Source: an uncultured Acidobacteriota bacterium (GTDB taxonomy: Bacteria; Acidobacteriota; Vicinamibacteria; Vicinamibacterales; UBA2999). Taken from it: a stretch of 64,000 nt of DNA. The DNA is taken from NCBI GenBank assembly GCA_963709325.1, contig CAVPVV010000003.1, positions 2,561,147 to 2,625,146 on the forward strand. Reading direction: 5' to 3'. Numbering within the stretch: the first letter of the stretch is position 1; the number at the start of each line of letters is the position of its first letter. A program made the translations under genes and the position numbers. Below the pieces are notes generated by a model. It was not told the DNA's origin and ran no database searches. It saw only the letters and a list, made by a program, of their open reading frames with translations. This document shows, in pieces, positions 3,589 through 60,277 of this stretch.

Positions 3589-3595
3589 GGCGTGT

Positions 3596-3839: not shown

Positions 3840-4236
3840 ACGCAGCGCGTCCGCGCCGCACCACACGTTCCATCAAGTGCTCCAGGCAGGCGGCAGGATC
3901 GGTTGTGCGCCCGGTGTGCACCTCGGAGGGCTGGATGATGGTGCTGCGCGGGGCGACGAGCCAGCGGAACCGGCCGCGCAAGGGAAGGGCGCCGATTGGG
4001 CCGGCCTCCGGCCCACCCTTGCAGACCACGGGAATCACGGCCAGGTTGCTGCGGACCGCATCCATGTCCACCGCGGGATCGATGGCGCGGATCAGCGCCT
4101 CGTCCACCTCGATGCGAGCGTCGAGGAAATCGCTGTCGGCGCAGGACAGGATGACGCCGACGTTGATCCGTTCGCCGCGATCGACTCGAGGCACGACCCG
4201 CACGATCGCGTAGTCGTAGGTGTATTCAGCGGACAC
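3826..4236 (-). CDS. DUF3037 domain protein
   Basis: 136-aa ORF. The N-terminus YDYAIVRVVPRVDRGERINVGVILSC matches my recollection of the DUF3037 signature. It overlaps the upstream HipA-like gene by 11 nt. Confidence 0.65.
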   Translation of the reverse strand: MSAEYTYDYAIVRVVPRVDRGERINVGVILSCADSDFLDARIEVDEALIRAIDPAVDMDAVRSNLAVIPVVCKGGPEAGPIGALPLRGRFRWLVAPRSTIIQPSEVHTGRTTDPAACLEHLMERVVRRGRAASNDE

Positions 4237-16101: not shown

Positions 16102-16209
16102 AGTGAGAGGTCAGAAGTGAGAGGTGAGAGGCACGGACAGTGCTCTCTGGCCTCTCACTTCTTTCTTCCTGCTTCGCTTCTAACTTCTCACCTCTCATTT
16201 TCACTTCGG
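16101..16209. repeat. GTGAGAA-family hairpin repeat (copy 2 of 3) filling the gap between convergent stops
   Basis: Left arm aagtgagaggtcagaagtgagaggtgagagg pairs with right arm cctctcacttc...cttctcacctctcattttcacttc. It could act as a bidirectional terminator. Confidence 0.75.
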
Positions 16210-18846
16210 TCACGTCCGCCGCAGGCTCTCGAGCGGATCGATCGTGGCCGCGCGACGCATCGGCAGCCAGGTTGCGACCAGTGACGCGACCAGCGTCAAC
16301 GCGATCGCCACGCCGTAGGTAACGACGTCGGCCGGCGTAACGCCAAACAGCAGCGACGCAATCGATCTGGCGAGCCCGTAGGCGCACACGGCGCCGATGG
16401 CGATGCCGACGATCGACAACTTCACGCTCTGGCCGATCACCTGCCGCGCGATCACCCGGGTGGGCGCACCGAGCGCCAGGCGTACGGCGATTTCGCCCGA
16501 GCGTTGGCTGACCGCGTACGACATCACCCCGTACAGCCCGGCCATCGCCAGCAGGATGGCGATCGTCGCAAACGCCGCGAACATCCCGCTCAGGAGAAAG
16601 TTCGACGAGTTCTCGTCCTCCATCGCCGCGGCGACGGTACGCAACTGGTAGGCCGGCAAGTCCGGATCGACGTCGCTGATCGCCTGGCGCAGCGGCCGTG
16701 CCAGCGATGCGGGCGCTGCCGCACGGAGGATGACATTCGTGGTCCGCGTCGGACGATGCTCGTCGAGCAGGTAGAGCGTCGGCATCGACGGTTCGGTGAT
16801 CATCGGATTCGCAACGTTGCGAGCCACGCCAATCACGGCGGCCTCGAGTGGCACTCCAGCCGGATCGGCGATGCGAACGGTCGAGCCGATCGCTTCGGAT
16901 GACGAAGGCCAGAAGCGGCGTGCGGCTTCCGCCGAGACCACGACGACCGCGCGAGGGCTGCTGGCATCCGCCGCTTCGAAGCCGCGCCCGGCGAGAAGTG
17001 GTACGCCGACCACCCTGAAATAGTCGGCGCTCACGACGGTGAGGCCGGCCGTGGGGCGGTCGCGCTCGTCCGCTGGTGGACGGCCGCCGATATCGAACGC
17101 CACGTTGTCGGCAAACTGCAGCGCCGGAAGCACGGTGGCCAGGGCCGCCGCTTCGACGCCGGGGATGTCCCGCACCCGCGCCAGGAGGCGTTGGCGCAGG
17201 CGGAGGGCCGCCTGATCGTCCTCGGTTTTCCATCTGGCGACGTCAATCTGCGCGCTCACGAGCGGGGACGGGTCGTAGCCAAGGTCGGCCACCACGATCG
17301 CCTGCATCGATTGGACGACGAGCGCGGCCACGATCAGCAGCGTCACGGCCAGCGAGACCTGCAGTACCACGAGTGCCGAGCGGCCGCGGGCCGCGGTCGC
17401 GCTGCCGACGGTGCGCGTCGATCCTTCCGAGAGCGTGGCCCTCACATCGTCGCGGAGGACGCGGAGCGTCGGGATGACGGAGAACGCGAGCGGCGTGACG
17501 AACGCGAGCGCCACCGCGAACAGCACCACACCGAAGTCGATCTGGAGCTGGCGGAAGAACGGCTCGGTGGACACGGCGTGAACGCCGGCGAGGCCTACCC
17601 ACGCGACCAGCAAGCCGAGCAACCCGCCGGCCACGCCCAGCATCAGGCTCTCGCCGATGATCTGCCTGACCACGCGCCCGCGCGTCGCGCCGAGAGCAGT
17701 CCGCACGGCCAGCTCCTGACGCCGGCCGATCAACCGCGCGATCAGCAGGTTCATGACGTTCGCGCAGGCGAGGAGCAGCAGCAGGCCGACCACGACCGAC
17801 AGCAGCGACAGGACCAGCCACGTGTTGGCGCCGCCGAGCGCCTGCCTGGTGGTACCGACACGAGCCGTCCAGTCGCGGTTCGTGTCAGGGTGCTCGCGGC
17901 GCAAGCGCTCGACGATTGCCGCTACCTGCACATGCGCGTCAGCGATCGTGGCGTGCTCTCGCAGGCGCCCGACTGGACGCCATCCTCGATAAGCACGTGA
18001 CGCCAGTGCCGGATCGCCGGTGTAGGGCAGCCAGACATCGATCTCCGAGATGTTGCCGAGCTCGATATCGGGCGCGACCACGCCGACGATCGTGTGAGGC
18101 ACGCCGTCGATCACGAAACTCCGGCCGATCACCCGCTCGTCGGCGCCAAATCTTGCAGTCCAGAACTGGTGGGCAAGGACGGCCACGCGCGGCGAGCCCG
18201 GCTGCTCGTCGGCCCCGCTCAGCAGCCGTCCACGCGCCGCCTTCAGTCCCCACAATCCCTGAAGATTCCCGATGACCATCTGCGCCAGCACGCGGTCCGA
18301 CTGATCGCGCTCACGCATCGTCACCGGCTGGCGGCGCCACGCGGCGAGCTGCGTGAAGGTCGAAACCTCGTCGCGGAACGCCGCGTACTCCGGCAGCGAC
18401 GTGCCAGCCCGATCCGGAGAGGCGCCGGGCATCGTCCCGAGAATCCAGCCGAGCCGATCGGGCCTGTCGAACGGCAGCGGCTTGAGCACGAGGATGTTGG
18501 CGATGTTGAAGATGAGCGTGTTGGCGCCGATCGCCAGCGCCAGGGTCACGACCGCGGCCCAGGAGAACGCGGGCTGGGTGACGAACAGGCGGACGCCGCG
18601 CACGAAATCTCGCAGCATGGTGAGCATGAGGCTGTCTCCGGAAGAATGCGGGGCTGGACGGGGACGGCGGCGGTGAAGATGCCAGCAGACGCCGGCCGCG
18701 CGACGCCAATAGCGGAATCGCGCACGACGAGGGGCACTGCGCAGCTCGTCGGCGAAGATTTCGGAGAGGTCGCCGAGTGCTGCCTCGGCGAATCGCGCGT
18801 CAATCAGATGCCGAACGAGCCGCTGCGGGAGGAGCGGCGGCGTCAT
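16210..18846 (-). CDS. ADOP-family duplicated MacB/FtsX-like permease
   Basis: 878 aa. The N-terminal 'permease prefix' region is LVRHLIDARFAEAALGDLSEIFADE. Two MacB_PCD/FtsX halves are present, and the start overlaps the upstream PadR gene by 4 nt. Confidence 0.85.
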   Translation of the reverse strand: MTPPLLPQRLVRHLIDARFAEAALGDLSEIFADELRSAPRRARFRYWRRAAGVCWHLHRRRPRPAPHSSGDSLMLTMLRDFVRGVRLFVTQPAFSWAAVVTLALAIGANTLIFNIANILVLKPLPFDRPDRLGWILGTMPGASPDRAGTSLPEYAAFRDEVSTFTQLAAWRRQPVTMRERDQSDRVLAQMVIGNLQGLWGLKAARGRLLSGADEQPGSPRVAVLAHQFWTARFGADERVIGRSFVIDGVPHTIVGVVAPDIELGNISEIDVWLPYTGDPALASRAYRGWRPVGRLREHATIADAHVQVAAIVERLRREHPDTNRDWTARVGTTRQALGGANTWLVLSLLSVVVGLLLLLACANVMNLLIARLIGRRQELAVRTALGATRGRVVRQIIGESLMLGVAGGLLGLLVAWVGLAGVHAVSTEPFFRQLQIDFGVVLFAVALAFVTPLAFSVIPTLRVLRDDVRATLSEGSTRTVGSATAARGRSALVVLQVSLAVTLLIVAALVVQSMQAIVVADLGYDPSPLVSAQIDVARWKTEDDQAALRLRQRLLARVRDIPGVEAAALATVLPALQFADNVAFDIGGRPPADERDRPTAGLTVVSADYFRVVGVPLLAGRGFEAADASSPRAVVVVSAEAARRFWPSSSEAIGSTVRIADPAGVPLEAAVIGVARNVANPMITEPSMPTLYLLDEHRPTRTTNVILRAAAPASLARPLRQAISDVDPDLPAYQLRTVAAAMEDENSSNFLLSGMFAAFATIAILLAMAGLYGVMSYAVSQRSGEIAVRLALGAPTRVIARQVIGQSVKLSIVGIAIGAVCAYGLARSIASLLFGVTPADVVTYGVAIALTLVASLVATWLPMRRAATIDPLESLRRT

Positions 18847-25870: not shown

Positions 25871-26881
25871 TCACTCCTGCGGCTGGAGCGCGAGCTCGGC
25901 CTCGACGGGCATGCCCTGCTTGAGCACGCCGGATTTGTTACCGGCCGAGATGCGAACCCGGTACACCAGCTTCGATCGCTCGTCGGCGGTCTGGACGTTG
26001 CGCGGCGTGAACTCCGCCTTGGGTGAGATGTAAGTGATGGTTCCCGCAACAGGCGCGCCGCCCGCGTCGGTGAAGAGCTGCGCCTGTTGCCCGATTCGAA
26101 GCCGCGGCACCGCCGGTTCCGGCACGAACACATCGGCCCACGCGTCATCGAGGTTCGCGACGACGGCCACTGGCGTCCGCGGCGCGATCACCTCACCGGA
26201 CTCGACGAGCTTGTCGGTGACGATGCCGCTGACCGGCGAGCGGAAGACGGTGTCGGCGAGGTTCTTCTGAAGCGAGGCGATCTGCGCGTCGGCAGATTCC
26301 ACACGGGTGCGCGCGACGTCGATCTCCTCGCGTCGGGCGCCGGCCTTGAGGCGCGCGAGCGCTTCCTGGACGGCGCGGACCCGGCTCTCCGCGCCCGACA
26401 GGCGATCCTTCGCGACGTCCCGTCTCGTTGCCGCATCGTCTCGCTGCTTGCGCGAGCCGGAGTTGCTGGCGAGCAACGCCTCGAACCGGCCGAGATCCTG
26501 CTCGGCGGCGGCCAGCTCGGCTCGCGCCGCGGACACCTCGGACTGCGCGGCGGTGACCTGTGATTCGGCCTGGCGGATGTCCTCGGCACGGGCACCGGCC
26601 ATCACCAGGCGGAGGTTGGCTTCGGCCTGGGCGCGATCGGCGCGGGCGCGATCGATGGCAAGCTCGACGTCTCGCGCATCGAGCTTGAGGATCTCCGTGC
26701 CGGCCTCGATGTGGTCGCCTTCCTCGAGCGTGAAGTCGAGAATCCGTCCGCCCGCATCCGGCGCGAGCCGCGTCTCGGTGGCTTCGACATGGCCCGACAC
26801 CCGCAGCGTGTTCGACGGCGGCGGCTCGGTGCAGGCGGCGGCCAGCGCCGCAGCGGCAGTGACGGACAGGAATCGGGTCAT
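25871..26881 (-). CDS. HlyD-family membrane fusion (periplasmic adaptor) protein
   Basis: 336 aa with a coiled-coil middle (AQAEANLRLV...AELAAAEQDL) and barrel-sandwich ends. Confidence 0.85.
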   Translation of the reverse strand: MTRFLSVTAAAALAAACTEPPPSNTLRVSGHVEATETRLAPDAGGRILDFTLEEGDHIEAGTEILKLDARDVELAIDRARADRAQAEANLRLVMAGARAEDIRQAESQVTAAQSEVSAARAELAAAEQDLGRFEALLASNSGSRKQRDDAATRRDVAKDRLSGAESRVRAVQEALARLKAGARREEIDVARTRVESADAQIASLQKNLADTVFRSPVSGIVTDKLVESGEVIAPRTPVAVVANLDDAWADVFVPEPAVPRLRIGQQAQLFTDAGGAPVAGTITYISPKAEFTPRNVQTADERSKLVYRVRISAGNKSGVLKQGMPVEAELALQPQE

Positions 26882-27525
26882 GAGCGGATCGGCTCCGGGG
26901 CGAGCAGCCGCAGCGCGGCCTGTTGCAGGTGGGCGATGAGTTCCGGGTGCGGCACATCCACGAACATGGGGAAGTCGACGCGGCCGGGGCGCGCGGCGGC
27001 GCGCTCCCTGGCTGCATTGACGAGCAGCGGACCGACGATCGACATGTAGGCGAGGACCGGGTTGATGGGGCGGAACACGCCGGCCTGCTGACCTTCGGCG
27101 AGGATGCGGTGGAAGGCGACGAAGACTGTCTTCATCAGCGCGATCGTGTCGGGGTCGAGGCGAGGCGCGCCTTCGGCGATCTCACGGAGCATGAGCGGCG
27201 GAAACCACGGGCGCTGGTCGGCGAGCGTGACCATGCCAGCGACGAAGGCAGACAGCCGCTGGTCGGCGGGGTCGGGCCGGTTGGCGATCTCGCCGACCAG
27301 GGTGCCGACGGCGCGGAGCATGTCGCGGACGACCTCGCGGTAGAGGGCGAGCTTGTCCTCGAAGTGGTAGTAAATCATCGCCTTGTTGATGCGGGCGGCG
27401 TGGGCGATGTCGTCGACGCCGACGCCGTCGATGCCGCGGGCGGAGAAGAGCTCCGCGGCGGCGAGGAAGACGTCCTCCCGGGTGTCACGCGGGGCGGAGC
27501 GGCGGGCGGAGCGGCGAGTGGTCAT
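26878..27525 (-). CDS. TetR/AcrR family transcriptional regulator, first gene of the efflux operon
   Basis: HTH is GVDDIAHAARINKAMIYYHFEDKLALY. Its stop overlaps the HlyD start by 4 nt. Confidence 0.85.
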   Translation of the reverse strand: MTTRRSARRSAPRDTREDVFLAAAELFSARGIDGVGVDDIAHAARINKAMIYYHFEDKLALYREVVRDMLRAVGTLVGEIANRPDPADQRLSAFVAGMVTLADQRPWFPPLMLREIAEGAPRLDPDTIALMKTVFVAFHRILAEGQQAGVFRPINPVLAYMSIVGPLLVNAARERAAARPGRVDFPMFVDVPHPELIAHLQQAALRLLAPEPIRS

Positions 27526-27538
27526 GGCAAGCTGTCTA

Positions 27539-27567
27539 CTAACCGGTTAGTTAATCTAACAGGTTAG
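27539..27567. promoter_or_regulatory. Tandem operator-like sites CTAACCGGTTAG and CTAACAGGTTAG (17-nt direct repeat CTAACNGGTTAGTTAAT x2)
   Basis: A perfect and a near-perfect 12-nt palindrome lie 13 nt upstream of the tetR start. They sit in the divergent intergenic region shared with the 27608 gene. Confidence 0.55.
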
Positions 27568-27607
27568 TTAATGTCCGCCGGCAGCCGGCTGTCAAGCCCC
27601 GCTTAGA

Positions 27608-29371
27608 ATGCCCCGACCCATGCCCTCGCCCCGGCCACACCCGGCGCCAGCCCTGCTGCTGGACCTCCTGATCGCCGCGACCGGCGCCGTCCTCCTCCTC
27701 ACCTGGATCACCGGCGGCCTGCTGATGCCGATCGGAGCCGCGACGATCAGCGTCCGCCAGCCGCTGCGTCCCGCGGTGATCCTCCTCGGTCTGATCGCGG
27801 CGCGCTACGTGCTTGGCGCTCGGCACCGGATTGCCCGTCGCGAAACCTGGCCCGATCTGCCGCTTCTCGCGCTGAGCGCCGCCGCCGTCGGCTACTCGAT
27901 CGTCTACCTCACGACGAATTGCGGCGGCGCTGACAGTTACGGGTACGTAAGCGCGGCGCTGCTGATTCGTCACGGCACGCTGAGCGTCCCGCAGCCGGAT
28001 CTCTCGTGGCTGCCAGCGTCGAACGCGCTGTCAGTCCTGACCCCGCTCGGCTATGCCCCGCGCCCACTCGACGGGACCATCGTTCCCCACTACCCGCTCG
28101 GCTTCCCGGCCCTCATCGCCATCGCCTCGCTCGTTTTGCCGACGAGCATCGCGCCGTACCTCGTCACGCCGATCTGCGACGTGGCCGCGCTTCTGCTGAC
28201 TTACCTGATCACGAGCCGCGTCACCGCCCAGCGCGCTACGGCATGGCTCGCCGTGGCGCTGGTTGCCTGGGATCCGCTGGTGATGACCTACGCCAAGCAA
28301 CCGATGAGCGACCTTCCCGCGGCGGTGTTCTTCCTGCTGGCACTCTGGTGTCTGCTTCGCGAGCGCCCGGCGCCGTTCGCGGCTGGTCTCGCCGCGGGCG
28401 CGGCCTTCGTCATACGGCCAGGAGGCCTCGGCGCGATCGCCGCACTCGGACTGCTGGCAATCTTGCCGAATCCCCGAGCCGCCACAGCCGAACCGCCGCG
28501 GCGTTTCGGCGAACAGATGCGCGCCGGCGTCCTCTTTGCGCTTGGCGTCATGCCAGCGATCGCGTTCCAGGCGCTCCTGCAATGGCACTTGTTCGGCAGT
28601 CCGCTCCGGACCGGATATGGCCCGCTCGAGGAGTTGTACGCCGGCCAGTCGCTGGCCGACAACGCGCGCATCTACGGCCAGGCGTTGCTGCTGACGCACG
28701 TCCCGGTCTGGCTGCTCCTGGTGCTGTCCGCGTTCATCGAGAAACAGATCCGGCGATTTGCGCTGTGGAGCCTGGTCCTCATCGCGGCGAGCATCACTCC
28801 GTACCTGCTGTACTTTCGCTTCGATCACTGGGAGACACTCCGGTTCATCCTTCCAGCGGTCATCGTCCTCGACATCGCGGCGGCAGCCGGCGCCGCTGCG
28901 CTGCTGGAACGCGTCACGCCCGTCGTCCGGGTGGCTGGCACGATCGCGCTGGCGGCGTTCGTCGCGATTCACGCCGGCACCTTTCTGCAGCGCCAGGGCG
29001 TCCCACTCCTCATGGATCAGGAGCGGCGCTACACCCTGACCGCGGACTGGATCGACCAATACACGCCGGCGACGGCGCTGGTCATCGCGGGACAGCACAG
29101 CGGGTCGGTCCGGCATTACGCGGGCCGGACTACGCTCCGATGGGATCTGCTCGATCCGAAGGACCTGGAACCAGTCGTCCGTGGCGCGCGGGAGCGGGGC
29201 CGGGCGGTATTTGCGGTGCTGGAGGGGAACGAGCAGGCCGCGTTTCGAGATCGATTTGCGCCAGTCCTGGCGGGCGGGGCCGATGGCATGGGTGTCCGGC
29301 TTTTGCCCGGCGCACAGGTTCGCAACGTGCAGATCTGGGAGGTGATTCCGCCAGCCGGGGAAACGCGATGA
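27608..29371 (+). CDS. Polytopic membrane protein, putative GT-C-fold (ArnT/PMT-like) glycosyltransferase
   Basis: 587 aa with more than 10 predicted TM helices, an early loop GGADSYGYVSAA and a large C-terminal soluble part. The assignment is by architecture only. Confidence 0.45.
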   Translation: MPRPMPSPRPHPAPALLLDLLIAATGAVLLLTWITGGLLMPIGAATISVRQPLRPAVILLGLIAARYVLGARHRIARRETWPDLPLLALSAAAVGYSIVYLTTNCGGADSYGYVSAALLIRHGTLSVPQPDLSWLPASNALSVLTPLGYAPRPLDGTIVPHYPLGFPALIAIASLVLPTSIAPYLVTPICDVAALLLTYLITSRVTAQRATAWLAVALVAWDPLVMTYAKQPMSDLPAAVFFLLALWCLLRERPAPFAAGLAAGAAFVIRPGGLGAIAALGLLAILPNPRAATAEPPRRFGEQMRAGVLFALGVMPAIAFQALLQWHLFGSPLRTGYGPLEELYAGQSLADNARIYGQALLLTHVPVWLLLVLSAFIEKQIRRFALWSLVLIAASITPYLLYFRFDHWETLRFILPAVIVLDIAAAAGAAALLERVTPVVRVAGTIALAAFVAIHAGTFLQRQGVPLLMDQERRYTLTADWIDQYTPATALVIAGQHSGSVRHYAGRTTLRWDLLDPKDLEPVVRGARERGRAVFAVLEGNEQAAFRDRFAPVLAGGADGMGVRLLPGAQVRNVQIWEVIPPAGETR

Positions 29372-36117: not shown

Positions 36118-38862
36118 CTATTTCGGCGACCCGGGCGCGGAGGCGGGGGCCTGTCCGAGGCTCAGGAGATTCGCCATCAACCGGAACGCGCCATCGGTGC
36201 CGGCCGGCAGCTGACGCCACAGGCCCAGGCCGATGTAGATCCAGCGTCCCTTGCCGACTTCCGCTTCGACCAGCGCGCCGCGCTTGGTTCCTTGGTTGTA
36301 CGCGAACGGCTCCTCGAACTCGAGCAGGTCCTTGATGTGCGGATCGCGATCCTGGGCGTCGAAGAAGTAGAGCCCGCGTTCCTGGACCCAGCCGGTCCAG
36401 TCCGCTCGCCCGATCTGGTTTGGTGTGTTGAACACCGGATTCTTCGGTTCGAGCAGACGCACTTCGGCGTTCTCGTCGGTCACACGCTCGCGGCCGACCT
36501 TACCCGGGTAAGGGGCGTACTGGGCATCGTTGAACTCGAACTTGTTGTAGTTGACGATCACGGTGCCGCCGGCGGCCGCGTAGTCGAGCAGCCGCTGGTT
36601 GTAGGCACGCAGATCGAGGCGCCGCTCGTAGGCACGGACGCCGGTCATCACCACGTCGTATTTCGTCAGGTCGCCCCAGGCCAGCTCCTCGGGCCCAATC
36701 ATCGACACCGACACGCCGAGCTGTTCGAGCGCTTCGGGAATCTGATCGCCGACGCCCATCACGTAGCCGATCTTCAGGTTCGGCTTGACCGCGACGTCCA
36801 CGGCCTTCGCCGTCACCTCGGGTGCAACCAGCACGTGCCGCCGCGTGGTGTGCGGGTATTCGACGAGTTGATAGCCCTGCGCGTAGGTGGCACCGCCGTC
36901 GCGAACGACCGCCTTGATCGAGAACTGGCTGCCGCCTGGCTTCGCCGCCGCGGACGCCAGCATCGGCGACGGCGGGGCGTCGACGAAGAAGCGCACGGTC
37001 ATCGCCTCGTCCTCACGCGAGAACGACACCGGCTGGCTCGCCGGCGTCGCGCGCCAGCCCTGCGGCAGCTCGAGAGCGACCTCACCCCTGGCGGCGCCCC
37101 TCGCGTGGTTCAGCACGGTGACGCGCACGTCCTTGCGCGTGCCGCGGGCGTTGGCCGGCGTCGCGCGGCTTGGCACGATCAACGTGTCGGGGCTGGCCGT
37201 CACCGCGAAGGCGGGCACGACGTGCAGCTCGGCCCGCTTCTCGCCGCTGAACAGGTTGCCTTCGGAACGCGCCTGCACCGGGATCGTCACCGGGAATTCC
37301 ACGCCGGCGACCGCGAAGGTGAACGTCGCGGTGAAGGGCGTCGGGCGGAATGGCAACCCGAACGGCACGTCCGGATCGAGGATGAAGCGCGCCGCGTCTT
37401 TCGCGTACTTGAAATGTGCGGCTGTCGGACGCGCGGCGGCAGGGATGACGCCGCCCTTCTCCGTTGGCTGATCGAAGCCGTTCAACGTCCGCGACTTCAC
37501 TTCCACGGGCGTGGTCCCGCGAGCCGCGGCGATCAATTGCACGCCCACCTGCTGGCCCGGCGTCACCACGCCGTCGTCGGCGACTGCGTCGATGCGCATG
37601 TCGGTGGCGGCGACAATCGCGTTGATGAACTGCGATTCCTTCTGCGCCAGGCGGAAGTCGATCTCGAACGTGCCGCTGTCGGACAGCCCCATGCCGGCCA
37701 GGCTCTGACGGAGCGTGCGCACCGCGGTCAGCCCGGCGGCCAGCGGAGCAACGGTGGCGGCGCTGGTTTCGGCGCCGAGTGCGCGCCGTGCGGCTTCGAC
37801 GTGACCGGCAATCGTCGCGAGCGATTGGGTCAGCGCGGCGGGCGGATTGGTGCCAGCGTAGGCAGCCAGCGATCCGAGGCTGACGTCGATACCGTCGAAC
37901 GGCTCTTTCTCGGCGCGATCAACGCCGTCAGGCAGGACGGTGTCGCGCAGCCGGTAGGAGCGCGGACCGGACATGAACCCGCCCTCTCCCGGCAAGGGCA
38001 GGAGCTGCGACATGCCCTGGCACTTGTGCATGCTGCGGGCTTCACCCTGCAGCTCGTTGTAGGTGCGGCCGAGGACGTGGTCGTAATCCGCGCCGCCAGT
38101 GAACATCAGCGGCTTCGACGCACCGGGGCCGCTGAACTGCTGAGGGCCACCGCGTCCGCCGCCCGGACCGAAGCCCGCGGTGTAGTAGAACTTGGTCGCC
38201 TGCCAGGGGCGGAGCCCGTCCTTGATCTGCTCGGGGAACTGATTCGGATCCGCGGCCGCGCGAAACGCTTCGGCGGTGAGCCGCGAGGAGGTCTGGTGAT
38301 GCTGTCCGCCGCCCTCACCGTCGAACACGAAGCCGACGATGACCTGGGGGCGGATCGTGCGGATCATGCGCACGTAGTCGCCGAGGATCTCCTGGTGGCC
38401 CCACTTTTCCAGCGTCTCCTCGACGCTGAACGAAAAGCCGAAATCGACCGCGCGCGTGAAGTACTGCTCGGCGCCATCATAGCGGTGGGCCGCCAGCAGC
38501 TCCTCGGTCCGCAGCACCGCAAGCGCCTCGAAGAGCTCCGGGCCGATCTCGTTCTGTCCGCCCTCTCCGCGGGTCGCCGTCACCAGGGTAGTCCGCATCC
38601 CCTTGCCGTGGCCGTAATAGGCCAGCATGGCGTTGTTCTCATCGTCGGGATGCGCCGTCGTCATCATGAGAGTCCCGACCGTGTCCAGCTTCCGCAGCGC
38701 CAGTTCGACAGCCGGTACTCCGCGCAGCGCCGCCACCGGCTGCAACTGGTGCTGCGCGGTGGGCGCCTCAATCAGCGCCGCGACCCCCAGAGTGGCTATA
38801 GCCAGGCGCTGCGCGAGGCGCCGCGTCCAATGACGATTGGTGATTGCCGATTGACGATTCAT
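36118..38862 (-). CDS. Large PIG-L (LmbE-like) family deacetylase with C-terminal ThuA/GATase1-like domain
   Basis: Contains the AHPDDENNAML motif and a signal-like RRLAQRLAIATLGVAALIEAPTAQ. The listed start at 39018 runs through the repeat element; ATG 38862 (MNRQSAITNRHW) is the more likely start. Confidence 0.75.
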   Translation of the reverse strand: MNRQSAITNRHWTRRLAQRLAIATLGVAALIEAPTAQHQLQPVAALRGVPAVELALRKLDTVGTLMMTTAHPDDENNAMLAYYGHGKGMRTTLVTATRGEGGQNEIGPELFEALAVLRTEELLAAHRYDGAEQYFTRAVDFGFSFSVEETLEKWGHQEILGDYVRMIRTIRPQVIVGFVFDGEGGGQHHQTSSRLTAEAFRAAADPNQFPEQIKDGLRPWQATKFYYTAGFGPGGGRGGPQQFSGPGASKPLMFTGGADYDHVLGRTYNELQGEARSMHKCQGMSQLLPLPGEGGFMSGPRSYRLRDTVLPDGVDRAEKEPFDGIDVSLGSLAAYAGTNPPAALTQSLATIAGHVEAARRALGAETSAATVAPLAAGLTAVRTLRQSLAGMGLSDSGTFEIDFRLAQKESQFINAIVAATDMRIDAVADDGVVTPGQQVGVQLIAAARGTTPVEVKSRTLNGFDQPTEKGGVIPAAARPTAAHFKYAKDAARFILDPDVPFGLPFRPTPFTATFTFAVAGVEFPVTIPVQARSEGNLFSGEKRAELHVVPAFAVTASPDTLIVPSRATPANARGTRKDVRVTVLNHARGAARGEVALELPQGWRATPASQPVSFSREDEAMTVRFFVDAPPSPMLASAAAKPGGSQFSIKAVVRDGGATYAQGYQLVEYPHTTRRHVLVAPEVTAKAVDVAVKPNLKIGYVMGVGDQIPEALEQLGVSVSMIGPEELAWGDLTKYDVVMTGVRAYERRLDLRAYNQRLLDYAAAGGTVIVNYNKFEFNDAQYAPYPGKVGRERVTDENAEVRLLEPKNPVFNTPNQIGRADWTGWVQERGLYFFDAQDRDPHIKDLLEFEEPFAYNQGTKRGALVEAEVGKGRWIYIGLGLWRQLPAGTDGAFRLMANLLSLGQAPASAPGSPK

Positions 38863-39191
38863 TGATGATTCGCGATTGGGAAATTGCGGCATTCGATTGG
38901 TGATTGAGGGAGTGGCGATTGGATCATTGACGAATGCTGATTGGTGATTGGGATTGGACGACAAGCCGCGGCCGAGACCGAGATCGCGCTTGGCCCGGCG
39001 AGAGAACGGTGCGAACACGGGGCATCAACTGAGGCGCTGGTTCGGCCAAATTGCCAATCAAATCGCCAATCGCCAATCGTCATTCGCCAAATCGCCAGTG
39101 CCCCAGTGCAGCAATCGACAATCGAATGCCGCAATCCCAAATTGCCAAGCATCAATCGATCGTCAATCGTCAATCGGCCATTCGTCAATGG
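38827..39191. repeat. CGATTGN/NCAATCG heptamer-periodic inverted-repeat element, family copy 2 (arms ~130-145 bp, ~88-bp unique core)
   Basis: Left arm 38827-38957 and right arm 39046-39191 are mutually complementary (for example gattgggaaattgcggcattcgattg versus caatcgaatgccgcaatcccaaattgcc). The termini are homologous to those of copy 1. Confidence 0.8.
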
Positions 39192-39207
39192 ACGCGGCAA
39201 CGGCGGC

Positions 39208-42097
39208 TCAGAACGTGAACTTGAACCCAATCTGCAGCTGCCTCTGCTCGTACCCGCTGTTCGGCGTCAGCTGGTTAGCCGACGTCGGCAGCGGCGCCAC
39301 CGGGCTGCCGTTGGCATCGGTGGTGATGGTCGAGTTCACGCCAGCCCACTGTTCGGTGTTGAAGAGGTTCTTGACCTCGGCGATCACCTCGGCAGCGGTG
39401 TTGTGGGCAAACCGGATCCGCCGTGAATAGCGGAAGTCGACGTTGTAGCGGGCCGGCAGGTTGATCGAGTTGCGTGTCACGCCGGCCGGGCGGTCCGCAC
39501 CGATCGCGTCGTTGTTCAGTTCGCGGTTGCTGCGCAGCGTGACCGGGATGCCGCTCGCGAACTGCAGCGCGATGCCGAACAGGTTGTTGTTCAGGATCGC
39601 GCCGGCGACACCCGCCTGTCGAAGCGCGGCTGCGCCACGATGCTGCCGACGAAGGTATGGCGCTGGTCGAGGATGTTCGGGCCCATGTCGGGTCGAGGTT
39701 GGCGGGATCGCTGCGCGCCGGTGTCGCCCTGCACGGACAGCGTGCTCGTGATCGGCGCGTTGTCTTCGCTCTTCGCCAGGGTGTAGGCCAGGTCGCACCC
39801 GATGTCGTGGTAATGCGGCGGGTGAACTGCAGCGTCAGGTTCTTGTAAGACGACTCGCCAATCGACTGCGACGAGAAGACCACGTTGAAGCGCGGATCGA
39901 CGCGGGTCGCGGCGTTGATGGCGGTGTTGAAGATCGGGAGGCCGTCGGCGAGCTCGCCGATCGGGCCGAGCAGGTTGATGTTCGGTCACGACCGGCAGGT
40001 TGTAGCCGCTTCAGGTAACGCAGCGCCGACACCGACCGAGTAGCGGTCGTTCAGGGCGTCGTTCGAGCTGGACGTTGTTCTGCCACATCCTGGCAATCTG
40101 GAAGTCCGGATCGACAATCCACGGATTGTTCGGCCGCGGCGTTCCCGCTGCCGGAGCGAGGACGTTGGGAAAGCCGGCGCACCGACCTGCGTCGCCTGCA
40201 GCGAAAGCCACGCGCGCGCGTGGTGCCGTCGTTGCGATCGCCTGCTCGTAGATCGCGTTGATCGGCTGGTCGTACATCAGGCCGCTGTTGCCGCGCAGAC
40301 CGGTGCGCTGGTCCCCACCGAGCGCCCACACGAAGCCGACCCGCGGCGCGACGTTGTTCTTGTCGGTGGGAAACTCGTGCGAGGCGTCGAGCACGGCGGT
40401 TCGGGACGCCCTCCGGCGGCGTGTAGGTGTCGTAGCGCACGACCGTAGAGGAGCTTAAGCGTCGGGGTGAGACGCCAGTCGTCCTGCACGAAGAAGCCGT
40501 ACATCCGCGTGTTGTACTCGTAGGTCGGATTGCCGACGAATTGCTGGAACGAGGTGTAGCCGAACGGATTGGCCCCGCTGCGCGCCGCCAGAAACGCGTC
40601 GACGTTCGCGAACGTGTAGAGCTGGATCAGCGTCTGCGTGCGCGAGTCGCTGACCGCCTGCGGTTGAAGCCGAACTTGTAGGCGTGATTGCCGCGGATGT
40701 AGGTCAGAGTTGTCGAGGACTTGAAAAATCGCCCTCGGTGAACCCGAAGCCCGGAATCGGCGTTGCCGCGAACCGGACCGCCGAAGTTGGCCACGCCGTT
40801 GATGCGGACGCCGGTCCGGTCCCCGCCTGCGAGCCCGGCAGCCCTCGACTGCGTGCGCGTCGCATACTGCACACGGAACTCGTTCAGGAGCCCGTGCCGA
40901 TCGTCGAGACCAGCTGCCCGCCGGTGGAGTGCTGACGGTCGGTGAAGTCGGTCCCCTGCTGCACCGAGTTCGGAACGCCGGACGTCGTGCTGCCGATGTT
41001 GTTGGGAATGAAATTGTCGAAGAAGATGTAGCGGACCGATGAGCCGGTTGTTGGTCGAGACGTTGTGATCGATCTTGCCGATCGCGAACTCGTCTTCGCC
41101 TCGGCGGGAATGTAGGCTGCGGCTCGGAGAGCCCCAGGCCGCGCGGCATTGGCCGGCGTGATCGTCACGACGCGCGCGCCCGACAGGTCGCGCTCGGTGT
41201 GCTCGAGTCCGCCGAAGTAGAATGGGTCTTGTTCTTGATGATCGGCCCGCCGTTGTCGGCGGTGAAGATGTTCACCTTGGTCGGCGGCTTGACGCGGTCG
41301 GTCGCGAAGAACGGCAGCTCCACCATCGGCTTCCGCTGGAAGCGATAGCTCGCCTGCCCGTGGCAGGTCGATTGGTGCCCGACGGGGTGATCGCGTTGTA
41401 GACCAGCCCCATCGTCTGACCGAACTCGGGCGCGTAGCCGGTGGTGACGACCTTGACCTCGCGGATCATCACCTCGGACATCGGCATCTGCCGCAGGCCG
41501 GCGCGATCCTTCTGCGGTGTTGTCGTTGCCGTCGATCTGATAGTTCACGCGCAGCAGCGCGCCGTTGGCGGTGAGGCGCGGGACGCCGAACTCTTGCGTC
41601 TCGAAGCCGACGACGCCGGGCTGGAGCAGCGCGAAGTTGTACGGGTTCCTCGAGGTGAGCGGCAGCGTCTTGATCTCGGCGCTCGTCAACGTCCGCCCCT
41701 GCTCGATCTTGCCGAGGTCGACGAGCGGGGAATCGGCGGTGACCGAGACCGTCTCGGTGACCGCGCCGACCGACAGCTTGACGTCGACCACGGCGATCTG
41801 CCCGGCGCGAAGCGAGATGCCGCTCTGCTCGTACTTCTTGAAGCCTTGCAGCTCGGCGGCGACGCGATAGTCGCCGAGCGGCAGCAGCAGCGCGCGATAC
41901 ACGCCGCTCTCGTTGGTAATCACCGACCTCGTATCACCGGTTTCGACATTGCGCACGGTGACGACGACCCCGGGCAGGACCGCCCCCTGGTCGTCGGTGA
42001 CCGTGCCTTCGATGGTGCCGTTGATGGCCGTGGTCTGAGCGGCGCTGGGGAGCGCCGACGCGAACGCAAGCAAGAGTGCGAGGACTAGGCGGAGCAT
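39208..42097 (-). pseudogene. TonB-dependent receptor with CarboxypepD_reg N-domain, broken by many frameshifts
   Basis: GGAGG plus the ATG at 42097 give the signal peptide MLRLVLALLLAFASALPSAAQ, followed by GTVTDDQGAVLPGVVVTVRNVETG. Receptor-typical segments are scattered over all three minus frames (ORFs 41165, 41272, 40884, 40277, 40627, 40051, 40011, 39591, 39275, 39208). The gene ends with the canonical ...YEQRQLQIGFKFTF*. Confidence 0.8.
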
Positions 42098-42205
42098 GAG
42101 GGACGCCTCCAGAAAAGGTGCAAACCCGCAGTATATCGCTAGTGTTTCCGATGCCCGAGGGCGGCCGCCGGGTCGCCCTTTTCGCACCTAGCGCACCCGT
42201 CGCAC

Positions 42206-52086: not shown

Positions 52087-52094
52087 GGCCTAAC

Positions 52095-52189
52095 GGAAGT
52101 GAGAAGTGAGAAGTGAGAAGTGAGAAGCAAGAGGCGCGAGGAAATCGGTGGGTCTGCTTCTCACCTTTCACCTCTCCTTTCTCATCTCG
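52095..52189. repeat. GTGAGAA-family hairpin repeat (copy 3 of 3) with a perfect (GTGAGAA)x4 tract
   Basis: Left arm ggaagtgagaagtgagaagtgagaagtgagaagcaagagg pairs with right arm ctgcttctcacctttcacctctcctttctcatctc. Confidence 0.8.
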
Positions 52190-52218
52190 GGCCGCAGACT
52201 GCCTCTTCCTGCAGTCCG

Positions 52219-56013: not shown

Positions 56014-57390
56014 ATGACTGTGCGGCTCCTCCTCTCGCTGGCGGTCCTCGCCGCGGCACTCCATCCCGCGCTCGTCGGGGCCCAGTCGCCCGCGACCAGC
56101 GACGCCGCCGCCTCGGCTCCGCTGAACGTCCCCTACACCGAGTTCACGCTCGCCAACGGGCTCCACGTGATCCTCCATCAGGACAAGACGATCCCCGTCG
56201 CGTCGATCAACGTCTGGTATCACGTCGGGTCGGGGCGGGAGAAGCCGGGACGAACCGGCTTCGCGCATCTCTTCGAGCACGTCATGTTCGAGGGCTCGGA
56301 GCACGTGCCCGAGGGTGCTTTCGACAACCTGCTCGAATCGGCGGGCGGCGACAACAACGGTTCCACCACCGAGGATCGGACCAACTACGTGATCGACGTG
56401 CCGTCCAACGCGCTGGAGCTGGCGCTCTACCTCGAGTCGGACCGGATGGGCTTTCTCGTGCCGACGCTGACGCAGGGCAAGCTCGACGGGCAGCGTGACG
56501 TCGTCAAGAACGAGAAGCGTCAGAGCGTCGACAACCAGCCGTACGGCCAGGCGTTCATCGAGCTGAACGCGATGCTTTATCCAAAGGGGCATCCCTACAG
56601 CTGGCCGGTGATCGGCTCGATGGAGGACCTCACCGCCGCCAGCCTCTCCGACGTCGTCGAGTTCTTCAAGACCTACTACACGCCCAACAACGCGAGCCTG
56701 GTCATCGCCGGCGACATCGAGATCGAGCCGACGAAGCAGCTGGTCGAGAAATGGTTCGGTGCAATTCCGCGCGGCGCCGAGGTGCCGCCGCTGGTGATTC
56801 CGCCCGCGACCTTATCCGAGGTCAAGCGCAAGACGATCACCGACCGCGTGCAACTGCCGCGACTCTACATGGCGTGGCCCACGCCGGCGTTCTACGCGCC
56901 GGGCGACGCGGCCATGGACCTGATCTCCAGCCTGCTGACCGGAGGGAAGAACTCGCGACTCTACCGCCGGCTGGTCTACGAGATGCAGATCGCGCAGGAC
57001 ATCACGGCCGCCCAGCAGTCGCAGGCCCTCGGCAGCAACTTCGTCGTCATTGCCACTGCTCGGCCCGGCCAGTCGCTCGAGAAGATCCAAGCGGTGATCG
57101 ACGAGGAGATCGAGAAGCTGAAACTGGGCCAGCCCGAGGAACGCGAGATGACTCGCGCCCTGAATCAGATCGAGGCGTCGTTCTACCGGCGCATGGAGCG
57201 CACCGGCAGCTTCGGCGGAAAGGCCGATCAGCTGAACGCCTACTACGTCGCGACCGGAATGCCGGACTACTTTGAAGAGGATCTGGCAAGATATCGGGCC
57301 ATCTCGCCGAACGACATCCAGTCGGCGGCACGCTTCTACCTGCCGAAGGATCGACGCGTCGAGTTGATCGTGACGGGAGAGGCGAAATGA
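56014..57390 (+). CDS. M16 (pitrilysin) family zinc peptidase, catalytic subunit, secreted
   Basis: ATG 56014 gives the signal peptide MTVRLLLSLAVLAAAL. The inverted zinc motif is HLFEHVMFEGSEH (HxxEH). Confidence 0.85.
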   Translation: MTVRLLLSLAVLAAALHPALVGAQSPATSDAAASAPLNVPYTEFTLANGLHVILHQDKTIPVASINVWYHVGSGREKPGRTGFAHLFEHVMFEGSEHVPEGAFDNLLESAGGDNNGSTTEDRTNYVIDVPSNALELALYLESDRMGFLVPTLTQGKLDGQRDVVKNEKRQSVDNQPYGQAFIELNAMLYPKGHPYSWPVIGSMEDLTAASLSDVVEFFKTYYTPNNASLVIAGDIEIEPTKQLVEKWFGAIPRGAEVPPLVIPPATLSEVKRKTITDRVQLPRLYMAWPTPAFYAPGDAAMDLISSLLTGGKNSRLYRRLVYEMQIAQDITAAQQSQALGSNFVVIATARPGQSLEKIQAVIDEEIEKLKLGQPEEREMTRALNQIEASFYRRMERTGSFGGKADQLNAYYVATGMPDYFEEDLARYRAISPNDIQSAARFYLPKDRRVELIVTGEAK

Positions 57391-58858
57391 TCGGGAGTCG
57401 GGAGTCGGGAACCGGGAGTCGGAAGAGCGCTTGTCTGGTGCTCGTCCTGGGCATCACGCTGATCGCGGGTCCGGCGCCCGCGCAGCAGCCCGATCGATCG
57501 AAGCCGCCTGCGATCGGCCCGGCGCCGGCGCTGAGGCTGCCGTCAGTCGAGAAAGGGACGCTCTCGAACGGCGTTCCTGTGTGGGTCATCGAGCAGCATC
57601 GAGTGCCGCTGGCACAGGTCAACGTGATCATGCGCGGTGGCAGCAGCCTCGACCGAAGCGGGCGTTACGGCATGGCCAGTCTCGTCGCGGCGATGCTCGA
57701 TGAAGGCGCCGGAGCGCGCTCCGCTCTCGATCTTGCTGACGCGGTGGATTTGCTGGGCGCGGATCTCTCGACCAGCAGCACCTTCGACTACTAGCGCCGT
57801 GCGGCTCTCGGTGCCGGTCAAGAACCTGGCGCCCGCGCTGGGGCTCCTCGCCGACGTCGTACTTCGCCCCACCTTCCCCGCAAACGAGCTTGAGCGCTTG
57901 AAGAAAGAGCGGCTCTCTGCGCTCGTCCAGGCGCGGGACAACCCGGCCCAGATCATCGGATACGCGTTTCCGCGTGTGGTGTTCGGGCCGACCTATCGCT
58001 ATGGCACGCCGGCCTCCGGGCTGGGTCCGGTGATCGAGGCGATCACCGCCGACGAGGTCCGCGCGTTCTACAAGGAGCACTACACCTCCGGCAACGCGAC
58101 GATCGTCGTCACCGGTGACGTGACACTGGCGAGCGTGAAGGCGGAACTCGACAAGGCGTTCACCGGCTGGCCGTCGAGCGGCGCGCGCGGGACGACCGCA
58201 GCGCTGCCGGTTGCGCCCCAGTTGACCAAGCGCGAGATCGTGCTGGTGGACAAGCCCGGGAGCGGCACAGTCGCAGATCCGCATCGGGTGGGTCGGCGTG
58301 CCCCGCTCGACGGCCGATTACGCCACGCTGCAGGTGTTGAACTCGCTGCTTGGCGGGTCGTTCGGATCACGGCTCAACCAGAACCTGCGCGAGGAACACG
58401 GCTACACCTACGGTGCGGCGTCGATGTTCGACATGCGGTCGTCCGCCGGCCCGTTCCTTGCCACTGCCGGCGTGCAGACCGACAAGACGGCCCCGGCGCT
58501 GCACGAGTTCTTCGTCGAGCTCGAGGGCATCCAGAAGCCGATTCCGGCAGCTGAGGTCGAGAAGGCGAAGAACTACGTCGCACTCGGTTTCCCGGCGGAG
58601 TTCGAGACCACGCGCGCGCTCGCACAGAAGCTCGAGGAGCTGATCGTCTACAACCTGCCCGACGACACTTACCAGTCCTTCTTCGGCGCGGTCCAAAAGG
58701 TCACCCTCGCCGAGGTCCAGAAGGCCGCCGCCCGCTACATCCAGGCCGACAAGCTGGCCATCGTCGTCGTCGGTGATTTGAAGGCGATTGAGCCGGGCAT
58801 CAAGGCACTCAACCTCGGTCCGATTCGCGTGGTACCGATCGAGGAGTTCTTCAAATAG
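57387..58858 (+). CDS. M16 family peptidase, non-catalytic partner subunit; two frameshifts (~57792 and ~58265)
   Basis: Three collinear ORF pieces (57387..57794, 57637..58554 middle part, 58298..58858) join as ...STSSTFDY|SAVRLSVPVKNL... and ...VLVDKPG..|QSQIRIGWVGVPRSTADYATLQVLNS.... There is no HxxEH motif. The start overlaps the upstream stop (ATGA). Confidence 0.75.
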
Positions 58859-58896: not shown

Positions 58897-60111
58897 ATGG
58901 CGGCAATCGCCGCGGCCGGCGGGCCGGCCCCGGTGTTCCTGCTCGAGCGGACCGCTGATGGCGGCCGCAAGATCCTGATCAGTGGCGGCGGCCGGTGCAA
59001 CGTGCTGCCGTCCACGCTCGCTCCCGAGCGCTTCGTCACCGATTCGCCGCCTCGCCTGCTGCGCGGGATGCTTCGCGCCTGGCCGCTTGCGCAGATGGTG
59101 CGCTTTTTCGAGGAAGATGCCGGTATTCCACTGGCACTCGAGGCCGAGAGCGGCAAACTGTTCCCTCGCTCGAACCGGGCCCGCGACGTACGCGATGGAC
59201 TCGTCTCGCTGGCCAGCCGACGCGGCGTCCGGCTGCAGTTCAACACGCGGGTTGACGGCGTGACGCCAACCGCGGACGGGTGGACCGTTGATACGTCGAA
59301 TGGTCGGATTGCCGCGGGACGCGTGATCGTTGCCAGCGGCGGCTTGTCGGTGCCCACGACCGGAAGCGACGGCACCGGCTTCACGATCGCCCGTGCGTTC
59401 GGCCACCGTCTGCACGACACCTATCCGGCATTGACGCCGTTGACCTTCGCGCCGACGACCGGACCACGAGCGTCGCCCGCCGCACCTCGCACCCTGCACC
59501 CCGCACTTCTTGCCGGCGTGTCGCAGCGCGCGAGAATACGGGCAAGGGGCGGCGAGCGGACCACAGAGGCGACCGGCGGGTTTCTGTTCACGCACCGCGG
59601 CTACAGCGGTCCGGCAATACTCGACGTTTCACACGTGTGCGTCAGGAGTCTCGTCGCCGAGCGGGCGCGTGTTCGCGTTGCCTGGAGCCTCATCCCTCCG
59701 GCCGAATGGGAGGCACGTCTGCAGACTGGAGATCGGCAAGTCGTCACGCTGCTCTCGCAGGAGATGCCGGAACGGCTGGCCCAGGCGCTGCTTGCCATCA
59801 GCGACGTGCCTCCCGATCGGCGCACGTCCGCGCTGACCCGTGCCGAGCGTGTCGCGGTCGTCGCCAATGTCACGGCGTGCGAACTCGAGTGGACGGGCCA
59901 CGAGGGGTATCGCAAGGCCGAAGTCACCGGCGGCGGCGTGGCGCTCGACGAAGTGGACCCGCGCACGCTGGAGAGCCGACACGTGCCTGGCCTGTATTTC
60001 TGTGGTGAGGTGCTCGACGCGTTCGGCCCGATCGGCGGTCACAACTTTGTCTGGGCGTGGGCGACCGGGCGTTCAGCGGGTCTGGCCGCGGCTCTCGCCT
60101 GTAATCCTTGA
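58897..60111 (+). CDS. HI0933/BaiN-like (aminoacetone-oxidase family) FAD-binding flavoprotein; 5' end probably upstream of the first ATG
   Basis: Contains ILISGGGRCNV. The in-frame codons 58861-58896 encode PIVVIGAGAAGL, which is the expected GxGxxG FAD motif, but there is no ATG/GTG/TTG between the upstream stop (58858) and 58897. Confidence 0.75.
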   Translation: MAAIAAAGGPAPVFLLERTADGGRKILISGGGRCNVLPSTLAPERFVTDSPPRLLRGMLRAWPLAQMVRFFEEDAGIPLALEAESGKLFPRSNRARDVRDGLVSLASRRGVRLQFNTRVDGVTPTADGWTVDTSNGRIAAGRVIVASGGLSVPTTGSDGTGFTIARAFGHRLHDTYPALTPLTFAPTTGPRASPAAPRTLHPALLAGVSQRARIRARGGERTTEATGGFLFTHRGYSGPAILDVSHVCVRSLVAERARVRVAWSLIPPAEWEARLQTGDRQVVTLLSQEMPERLAQALLAISDVPPDRRTSALTRAERVAVVANVTACELEWTGHEGYRKAEVTGGGVALDEVDPRTLESRHVPGLYFCGEVLDAFGPIGGHNFVWAWATGRSAGLAAALACNP

Positions 60112-60127
60112 CTCTGGCGGCTTTCTA

Positions 60128-60190
60128 CCTTCTGCCTTCTGCCTTCTGCCTTCTGCCTTTTGCCTTTGCCTGCCTTTGGCCTTGACTTTG
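60128..60190. repeat. (CCTTCTG)x4 tandem heptamer followed by degenerate CCTTTTG/CCTTTGG units
   Basis: Read directly from the sequence. It is pyrimidine-rich on the plus strand, has no complementary arm nearby, and lies between the flavoprotein stop and the metalloprotease gene. Confidence 0.8.
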
Positions 60191-60277
60191 CTCGACCCCC
60201 GGGGCCACCCGTCTTGACCGACGTGCGAACGACAATTTCGTCGCGCGGGCTGCATAACTGATCATCGCGAGTGACCT

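Follow-up and report, generated by a model that had tools for sequence, protein, structure and literature searches.

Repetitive extragenic palindromic (REP) sequences and bacterial interspersed mosaic elements (BIME), the Correia (NEMIS) elements, and the MITEs (miniature inverted-repeat transposable elements) of the enterobacterial repetitive intergenic consensus (ERIC) type form co-transcribed hairpins that stabilize the upstream mRNA or are cut by RNase III, and they can alter the ends of genes. Correia and ERIC-type elements create promoters. MITEs are bounded by defined terminal inverted repeats and come with target-site duplications. The REP unit is a palindrome of 20–40 bp with a GTAG or CGTC tag and a link to RAYT transposases (PMC3733652). 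Operons that undergo selective RNA processing and stabilization carry intercistronic stem-loops (PMC4423207, PMC8219983). Arrays of much shorter units were reported in Geobacter metallireducens by Aklujkar et al. 2009 (PMC2700814), where hepta- or octanucleotide arrays are paired on opposite strands (units of classes 1–3: GTTGCTYN, TCTCCGTS[Y] and MTYCTGA). There are 8–24 pairs per class, some lie between cistrons, such as proB/proA, and they were interpreted as binding sites for proteins, with a suggested role in the binding of regulators (PMC2700814). Rehm et al. 2015 described heptameric simple sequence repeats (SSRs), GGGAATC in Xanthomonas and GGGGA(C/T)T in Nostoc; each Xanthomonas genome has 70–75 convergent inverted pairs, which prefer co-oriented gene pairs, and most copies are transcribed (PMC4692102). 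Here we analyze a 64 kb stretch (64,000 nucleotides of contig CAVPVV010000003.1, called the window) from an uncultured member of the Acidobacteriota, an abundant and poorly cultured soil phylum; the names of homologues mark it as Vicinamibacterales-type. The element under study, copy 2, is an imperfect palindrome of the CGATTG/CAATCG type between a gene for a TonB-dependent-receptor-like protein and a gene for a PIG-L deacetylase. We found no description in the literature of the CGATTG unit, or of such elements in Vicinamibacteria or Acidobacteria. Copy 2 is probably a resident member of a family of long palindromic repeats dispersed through the intergenic DNA of Vicinamibacterales-type Acidobacteriota, an intercistronic hairpin that has captured a start codon for the gene behind it.

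Anatomy of copy 2 and the start of the PIG-L gene

The features of the window on which the analysis rests are as follows. Loci from other genomes are given by their labels (L001 and so on).

38820–39198, minus strand: whole imperfect palindrome (copy 2, CGATTG/CAATCG family), from inverted repeats, fold z-score and nhmmer
38820–38957, minus strand: gene-proximal (left) arm, 138 nt, 48.6% GC, encodes PIG-L residues 1–15
38958–39045, no strand assigned: unique core, 88 nt, 68.2% GC, holds the GTG at 39018
39046–39198, minus strand: distal (right) arm, 153 nt, the 5′ hairpin arm on the mRNA strand
36118–38862, minus strand: PIG-L/LmbE-family deacetylase gene, 914 amino acids from ATG 38862, Pfam PF02585, intact
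38860–38862, minus strand: ATG, the likeliest PIG-L start, nearest in-frame start that keeps the conserved signal peptide
38824–38826, minus strand: ACG (Thr13) where orthologues have the initiator ATG of M-R-R, within the terminal CATTGGACGC motif
38890–38892, minus strand: alternative upstream in-frame ATG (MPQFPNRESSM...), in the arm, conserved in L005 and L001
39208–39210, minus strand: TGA stop of the TonB-dependent-receptor-like gene (...GFKFTF*)
3592–3843, no strand assigned: copy 1 (CGATTG/CAATCG family), flanked by convergent genes, fold z = −8.6

A preliminary description of this stretch had proposed a second CGATTG/CAATCG element with a core of normal GC content at 38958–39045. The element is real, and its ends could be refined to 38820 (GCCGCGTCCAATG...) and 39198 (...CAATGGACGCGGC). 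The core agrees in composition with the rest of the PIG-L gene (68.1% GC); the window as a whole has 67.6% GC and the right arm 51.3% (measured over 39046–39199). On the plus strand, the left arm is made of degenerate heptamers (CGATTGG, TGATTGC, CGATTGA) of the GATTG type, which read as CAAUC on the mRNA strand, and the right arm is the reverse complement, with CAATC-type heptamers on the plus strand. The gene-proximal arm contains 13 GATTG-like motifs. Each arm has approximately 18–20 degenerate units, and the two window copies are 252–379 bp in size. The GC skew and the AT skew of the two arms are of opposite sign, and TTGACG hexamers, which resemble a −35 box, are numerous in the arms. Tandem Repeats Finder returned periods of 7 and 22 in the arms. 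The sequence GATTGNNGATTG occurs 11 times in the window, always within copies 1 and 2, against a shuffle mean of 0.04. The excess of self-identity is specific to a lag of 7, with six segments in the window; a lag of 12 gives two segments, a lag of 9 gives one, and lags of 5, 6, 8, 10 and 11 give none.

When folded as minus-strand RNA, copy 2 reached −197.6 kcal/mol, compared with −135.2 ± 5.7 kcal/mol for dinucleotide shuffles (z = −11.0; 0 of 100 shuffles were as stable). The nhmmer arm matches in copy 2 span 38822–38918 (plus) and 39196–39099 (minus). The core, searched by blastn against all compared sequences, matched only the orthologous element in L005. No Rfam covariance model matched anywhere in the window at gathering thresholds, and a scan of 38600–39400 with a relaxed E-value returned only a chance match to a miRNA model, outside copy 2. 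A protein-coding function of the arms beyond the run-on of open reading frames (ORFs) was rejected.

The gene upstream of copy 2 encodes a carboxypeptidase-regulatory/TonB-dependent-receptor-like protein and lies on the minus strand, as does the PIG-L gene. Copy 2 fills the spacer from the receptor stop codon to the PIG-L gene; the palindrome begins 9 nt after this stop and, at its other end, overlaps the PIG-L frame by 43 nt if ATG 38862 is taken as the start. The first 12 codons of that frame, MNRQSAITNRHW (38862–38827), are encoded by the arm.

The mature protein of PIG-L homologues (n = 120) begins ...AQHQLQP, and the signal peptide almost always starts with M-[R/K]-[R/K], as it also does at 52 orthologous metagenome loci. 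Several orthologues that carry the element use its terminus for initiation. The terminal CAATG of the element provides the initiator ATG in L002/L006, where the junction is ...GGCAATGGGCAGGCGC (M G R R), and in L004, where it is ...CGCAATGAGCAGGCGC (M S R R). L008 and L009 initiate a few nucleotides past the terminal motif, whose own ATG stands three codons upstream in the same frame. At the initiator position, the reading ...CAT TGG ACG CGG CGC (H W T R R; W-T-R/Q-R over the three sequences) is confined to the window, L005 and L001. Comparison of these junctions shows that the ancestral PIG-L ATG was lost in the lineage of these three. From the ACG at 38824–38826 to the region of signal-peptide cleavage, no ATG, GTG or TTG occurs.

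The window gene shares 97–99% amino acid identity and 93–97% nucleotide identity with P0001 and L005; over the N-terminal 300 residues, the amino acid identity is 99% with L005 and 97% with L001. By these comparisons the gene is clearly functional and under purifying selection, and so it must be translated. Because no start codon lies between this ACG and the cleavage region, translation must start inside copy 2. The most likely start, judged from the reading frame, is ATG 38862, which would add 12 element-encoded residues to the n-region of the signal peptide. The preliminary description had named this codon and placed the first 12 codons in the left arm, and both points stand, since the ancestral ATG is lost and the nearest usable start lies there. 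ATG 38892 and the GTG at 39018–39016 are possible starts as well; the latter, the beginning of the longest ORF, does lie in the core, as had been stated. A true start far downstream is excluded, as every orthologue keeps the signal peptide.

Where the CGATTG element is missing, the orthologues show a Shine–Dalgarno sequence (GGAG or GAGG) 6–10 nt before the PIG-L ATG. None of the CGATTG-bearing orthologues has one at this position, and PIG-L initiation must therefore differ in those lineages.

The receptor gene of the window (39208–42187, minus strand) is itself broken into several frames and has many insertions and deletions relative to L005. Its DNA is 67–87% identical to that of L005, compared with 93–97% in the flanks, and the copy in L005 is intact (956 amino acids). 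From this comparison, the window receptor gene is probably a pseudogene.

The dispersed family and the orthologous spacers

Copy 1 is flanked by an aldehyde dehydrogenase gene with its stop codon at 3586–3588 and a DUF3037 gene with its stop codon at 3826–3828, the latter within copy 1. It had been claimed that the two copies have the same arm sequences, and the likeness goes beyond the shared unit. The reverse-complemented right arm of copy 1 matched the left arm of copy 2 at 81 of 104 ungapped positions; the null expectation from shuffled 7-mer blocks was 44.7 ± 5.4, with a maximum of 69 in 2000 trials. The match takes in the non-periodic stretches GATTCATTGA and ATTGCGSCATTCRATTGGTGAT and the terminus GCGCYGCGTCCAATG. 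Overall, both copies have in common the order of units, the non-periodic signatures GATTCATTGA and ATTGCGGCATTCGATTGGTGAT, and the termini of 10–15 nt. Copy 2 is a true homologue of copy 1 because the unit order is conserved and not the unit alone. An arm-to-arm global identity matrix was dropped, as any two CGATTG arms score 50–80%, and was replaced by local alignment together with the block-shuffle test.

We used nhmmer with a profile of the four window arms. In the window, it recovered only those four arms and one weak match inside the right arm of copy 2. Members with the terminal motif were found in the receptor/PIG-L spacer of L001, L005, L002/L006, L004, L008, L009 and L051, at the orthologous copy-1 site of L205 and L207, and at unrelated loci, namely L205 689–880, again with convergent neighbours, and L145 and L161 (Acidobacteria bacterium SJ725). 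The termini GCGTCCAWTG and CAWTGGACGC are common to both window copies, L005, L161 and others. The members are located at the 3′ ends of genes, convergent pairs included. These statements on gene context rest on manual inspection and on the gene calls supplied with the loci; a filter based on GC content at third codon positions was discarded for the orientation of flanking genes, as it yielded spurious antisense ORFs and missed real genes. Taken over these loci, the sequence comparison shows that a family element was anciently present at the receptor/PIG-L spacer in several lineages.

At copy 1, the DUF3037 gene of the window (3826–3849, minus strand) has lost its native stop codon and runs through eight extra codons (GRAASNDE*) to a TGA supplied by the element. 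In relatives, the protein ends in ...RVVRR* and has 128 amino acids, and several relatives have similar element-encoded tails (ASIGD, TSNDD, PSIDD). This stop loss is the mirror event of the PIG-L start loss. The same locus in a more distant relative (L206 1615–2088) has a 473-nt spacer without CGATTG, in which a different GC-rich repeat, CCGGGTCCGCGGGACTGTGAGGGCCGCCGTCCC, occurs twice. At L009 1073–1160, and also in L011, the stop-proximal flank and the element terminus, together approximately 28 nt (CGCYGCCGGCGTTCATTGACGATTCNGA), stand in tandem triplicate at the 5′ end of the orthologous CGATTG element.

The order of receptor stop (FKFTF*) and PIG-L gene is syntenic in more than 30 loci, and the spacer between them varies widely in length: 3 nt in L028, 8 nt in L038, 26 nt in L010 (88% amino acid identity), 29 nt in L054, and up to 380 nt in L009. 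Among non-redundant spacers of at least 55 nt, 20 of 23 fold with z < −3 (mononucleotide shuffles). The distance from the stop codon to the start of the stem is usually 0–8 nt, and the stem often extends as far as the ATG. Most of the well-folding spacers are hairpins in which one arm is a tandem array of short units and the facing arm its reverse complement, and the unit differs by lineage:

CGATTGN: the window and at least eight other loci
GGGAGTC: L003, L007, L039
GAGGTTA: L030
GGGATCC or GGGGATC: L035, L044, L055
CACGAAG: L049, L057
GTCAGGCC: L052
CAGGCCAN: L033, L034

The spacers of L042 and L050 instead have two plain GC-rich hairpins with T-rich tails. The units span 7–9 nt; nine spacers have arms with a dominant period of 7, and five have one of 8. 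Four different units occur within one tight clade with near-identical signal peptides (L035, L039, L044, L049, L054, L055, L057). In this clade, the 29-nt spacer of L054 equals the 105-nt spacer of L035 minus the heptamer arms. At the level of sequence, this pair is direct evidence for expansion or collapse in place, with both arms changing together.

Heptamer arrays of other kinds are also present in the window. A second family, GAAGTGA/TCACTTC, forms hairpins at 16096–16212 and 52090–52190 (z = −5.7 and −5.8), one of them between convergent gene ends and the other approximately 10 nt upstream of the start of a minus-strand gene. Unpaired arrays were found at 57388–57432 (TCGGGAG, 4.6 copies, starting at a stop codon), at 60106–60183 (TTCTGCC, 7 copies, upstream of a gene starting near 60275) and at 11655–11760 (CCTGGGG, periods 7 and 21); none of the three folds better than shuffles. 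At 27538–27572, a tandem pair of a 17-nt palindrome-containing motif, CTAACCGGTTAGTTAAT CTAACAGGTTAGTTAAT, lies exactly between two divergent ORFs (26878–27546, minus; 27572–29371, plus) and looks like a repressor operator.

Beyond this clade, the exact pattern GATTGNCGATTGNCGATT has at least 120 loci in species-representative genomes. Among the matches listed, approximately a quarter are from Acidobacteriota and the remainder from Planctomycetota, Verrucomicrobiota, Bacteroidota, Chloroflexota, Desulfobacterota and others. Both orientations occur within 400 nt in about two dozen of the matches listed, for example L136, L147, L150, L169 and L089, the last from a Desulfobacteraceae genome of 46% GC. 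These arrays share a pattern and are not necessarily homologous to the window family, and some single matches must be due to chance. In L147, from another Acidobacteriota genome, CGATTG-type arms (approximately 6290–6500) flank a canonical intrinsic terminator, GCGGCGGTCACCTTTGGTGACCGCCGTTTTTCTTT, as their core. A search of the phage collection for the element gave no match. The only match in the plasmid collection was a perfect (CGCCAAT)17 in Photobacterium sp. DA100 (L208, NZ_CP119424.1, 1503–1618). It stands directly after an intrinsic terminator, downstream of a transporter-like ORF; the heptamer is that of the window arms, but here it is unpaired and in a gammaproteobacterium.

Proposed role and competing explanations

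We consider it probable that copy 2 acts as an intercistronic hairpin of the dispersed family. On a read-through transcript, it would fold into an imperfect hairpin with a stem of approximately 130–150 bp; only 9 nt would separate the receptor stop from the hairpin, and the PIG-L start would lie within it. Such a hairpin would act as a barrier at the 3′ end and protect the upstream message, would be a substrate for processing by a double-strand RNase (RNase III-type), and would damp or uncouple the translation of PIG-L. The element would supply no promoter. Its family probably spreads and is maintained at the DNA level, through slippage of the short units, copying between arms, and a dispersal step. 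The roles proposed for the hairpin are modelled on those of REP, BIME and Correia elements and of operon stem-loops, from which we infer them by analogy.

Several observations weigh against this account. With the receptor gene probably decayed, a role in operon stoichiometry cannot be current in this genome. ATG 38862 has no Shine–Dalgarno sequence and lies inside a very stable stem. The sense and antisense folds of 24 orthologous spacers are equally stable (Wilcoxon p = 0.36), and the counts of G–U pairs in the two senses of these spacers give no RNA-strand-specific signal. In the stem, comparison of the window with L005 gave 13 breaks from a change on one side and 7 cases in which the pair survives such a change, but 0 compensatory double changes. 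Thus, the sense RNA is not singled out as the selected form, and a selfish or neutral origin of the hairpin at the DNA level is fully compatible with the data. No flanking direct repeat or target-site duplication was seen at copy 1, copy 2, L205 689–880, L145 875–1061 or L161 1729–2005, and just two copies are present within 64 kb. No transposase was found for the element among the window ORFs, which were not scanned exhaustively. There is no clean empty site, as L010 (26-nt spacer) and L206, which have no element, carry other repeats and show no sharp boundary.

A broader idea, which we hold only tentatively, is that a general process builds intergenic hairpins from tandem units of 7–9 nt irrespective of their sequence and across phyla, and keeps the arms complementary; copy 2 would then stand at the large end of its products. 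At least seven unrelated units at one orthologous spacer, the collapsed and expanded states, and the joint change of both arms bear on it. If true, it would imply an uncharacterized generator at the DNA level, for example slippage with hairpin-templated copying or a dedicated enzyme, and a selectable role of such hairpins, as RNA or DNA, between cistrons. A single spacer that holds hairpins of different units by lineage, in collapsed and expanded states, is a more intriguing lead than copy 2 itself.

An unlikely alternative is that copy 2 grew purely locally, without mobility, from a short palindrome or terminator through 7-nt slippage and inter-arm copying, and that its likeness to copy 1 reflects convergence or gene conversion. 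The different 7–9-nt units of the orthologous spacer, the resemblance of L054 and L035 to collapsed and expanded states of one site, and the equal stability of the two strands all fit such growth, as do the lack of target-site duplications and the existence of unpaired heptamer arrays (57388, 60106, Photobacterium). Against it, the unit order, GATTCATTGA, ATTGCGGCATTCGATTGGTGAT and the termini of 10–15 nt that copies 1 and 2 share lie far beyond the block-shuffle null, and the same termini recur at unrelated loci of another genome (L145, L161).

The preliminary description had suggested that the element may carry or modulate the promoter or 5′ untranslated region of the PIG-L gene, as MITE-like elements sometimes do. 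We regard the corresponding explanation, a MITE-like mobile element with PIG-L transcription starting inside it, as quite unlikely. A scan for the sigma-70 consensus found 0 sites with a −35/−10 pair on either strand of 38500–39500, although acidobacterial promoters may differ, despite the many TTGACG hexamers in the arms. The element does occupy all 345 nt upstream of the PIG-L gene, and an internal promoter would be useful here, where the receptor gene has decayed; the promoters created by Correia and ERIC-type elements are a general precedent. L005 has the same element next to an intact receptor gene, however, and target-site duplications were not found. The orthologous spacers of 3–29 nt imply that the gene pair was ancestrally co-transcribed, which argues against the need for an element-borne promoter, and family members also lie between convergent genes (copy 1, L205 689–880), where no promoter is needed. 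Copy 2 was rejected as an intrinsic terminator as well, since no terminator was found on either strand of 38500–39500: there is no U-tract, and the 3′ arm is followed by GGACGCGGCGCC.

Very unlikely is a last explanation, in which a protein that binds DNA or RNA (such as a nucleoid-associated protein or global regulator that reads GATTG every 7 bp) has its arrayed sites in the arms and the palindrome is secondary: the Geobacter arrays were interpreted in this way (PMC2700814), GATTG-type arrays occur in many phyla (at least 120 loci, and the Photobacterium array), and the arms stand out as AT-rich against a genome of 68% GC, but no candidate protein is known, the unrelated units of the orthologous spacers (GAGGTTA, CACGAAG, GGGAGTC and others) argue against a single sequence-specific factor, and what the spacers have in common is complementarity between the arms.

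The elements have consequences for annotation and for gene evolution. In Vicinamibacterales-type genomes they abut or overlap gene ends, and gene callers run ORFs into them (for example P0005, P0009, P0019, P0021). Real proteins also gain element-encoded termini (PIG-L, 12 residues at the N-terminus; DUF3037, 8 residues at the C-terminus). The PIG-L gene is a clean natural case in which a repeat destroyed a start codon and supplied the replacement while the gene was under purifying selection.

Comparison with described systems

Like REP, BIME, Correia and ERIC-type elements, the members of the family are palindromes dispersed in extragenic DNA, where they occupy the 3′ ends of genes and sites within operons. 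The arms of the window copies (approximately 130–150 nt, in elements of 252–379 bp) are far from the size of a REP unit. The GCGTCC terminus contains CGTC, but this tetranucleotide recurs throughout the arms (GACGATTG) and so is not diagnostic of REP. The term MITE-like, used in the preliminary description, is loosely apt: terminal inverted repeats, in the form of inverted arms, and several dispersed related copies are present, and no target-site duplication was found in the inspected copies; a cognate transposase is not known. As in operons with selective RNA processing, a stable stem-loop stands right after the upstream stop codon, and its position is conserved across orthologues. The operon stem-loops are short and unique, whereas copy 2 belongs to a dispersed family, has a putative function, and shows no RNA-strand-specific signal.

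The Geobacter arrays are closer. They too are intergenic or intra-operonic and consist of tandem 7–9-nt units, and the array recurs on the opposite strand after an interval of variable length. In both systems, several families that are recognizable by BLAST occur per genome, and a related species differs at the same spacer. The Geobacter arrays have 3–5 (or more) units, whereas the arms here have approximately 18–20 degenerate units, and the element has a GC-rich core and conserved termini. The report on Geobacter mentions no array that overlaps a coding end, and the phylum and the unit sequence differ from those of the window element.

The SSRs of Xanthomonas and Nostoc share with copy 2 the 7-nt unit, the location in non-coding DNA, where the SSRs are over-represented, between co-oriented genes, and the proximity to stop and start codons. 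Copy 2 has the make-up of their inverted pairs, with tandem 7-nt units and a convergent array on the opposite strand in intergenic DNA, and the orthologous element of L002/L006 contains GGGGATT runs, as in the Nostoc-type SSR. The SSRs have G-tracts that form G-quadruplexes and prefer four units, whereas the CGATTGN units of the window lack GGG runs and its arms are long and degenerate, with a unit order conserved between copies. The paired arrays of Geobacter and Xanthomonas were noted without a mechanism; the receptor/PIG-L spacer offers dozens of natural variants (a 3-nt spacer, collapsed and expanded states, different units, and family elements of 380 nt) on which origin and function are testable. 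Copy 2 is an unusually long new example of the paired short-unit arrays known from Geobacter and Xanthomonas.

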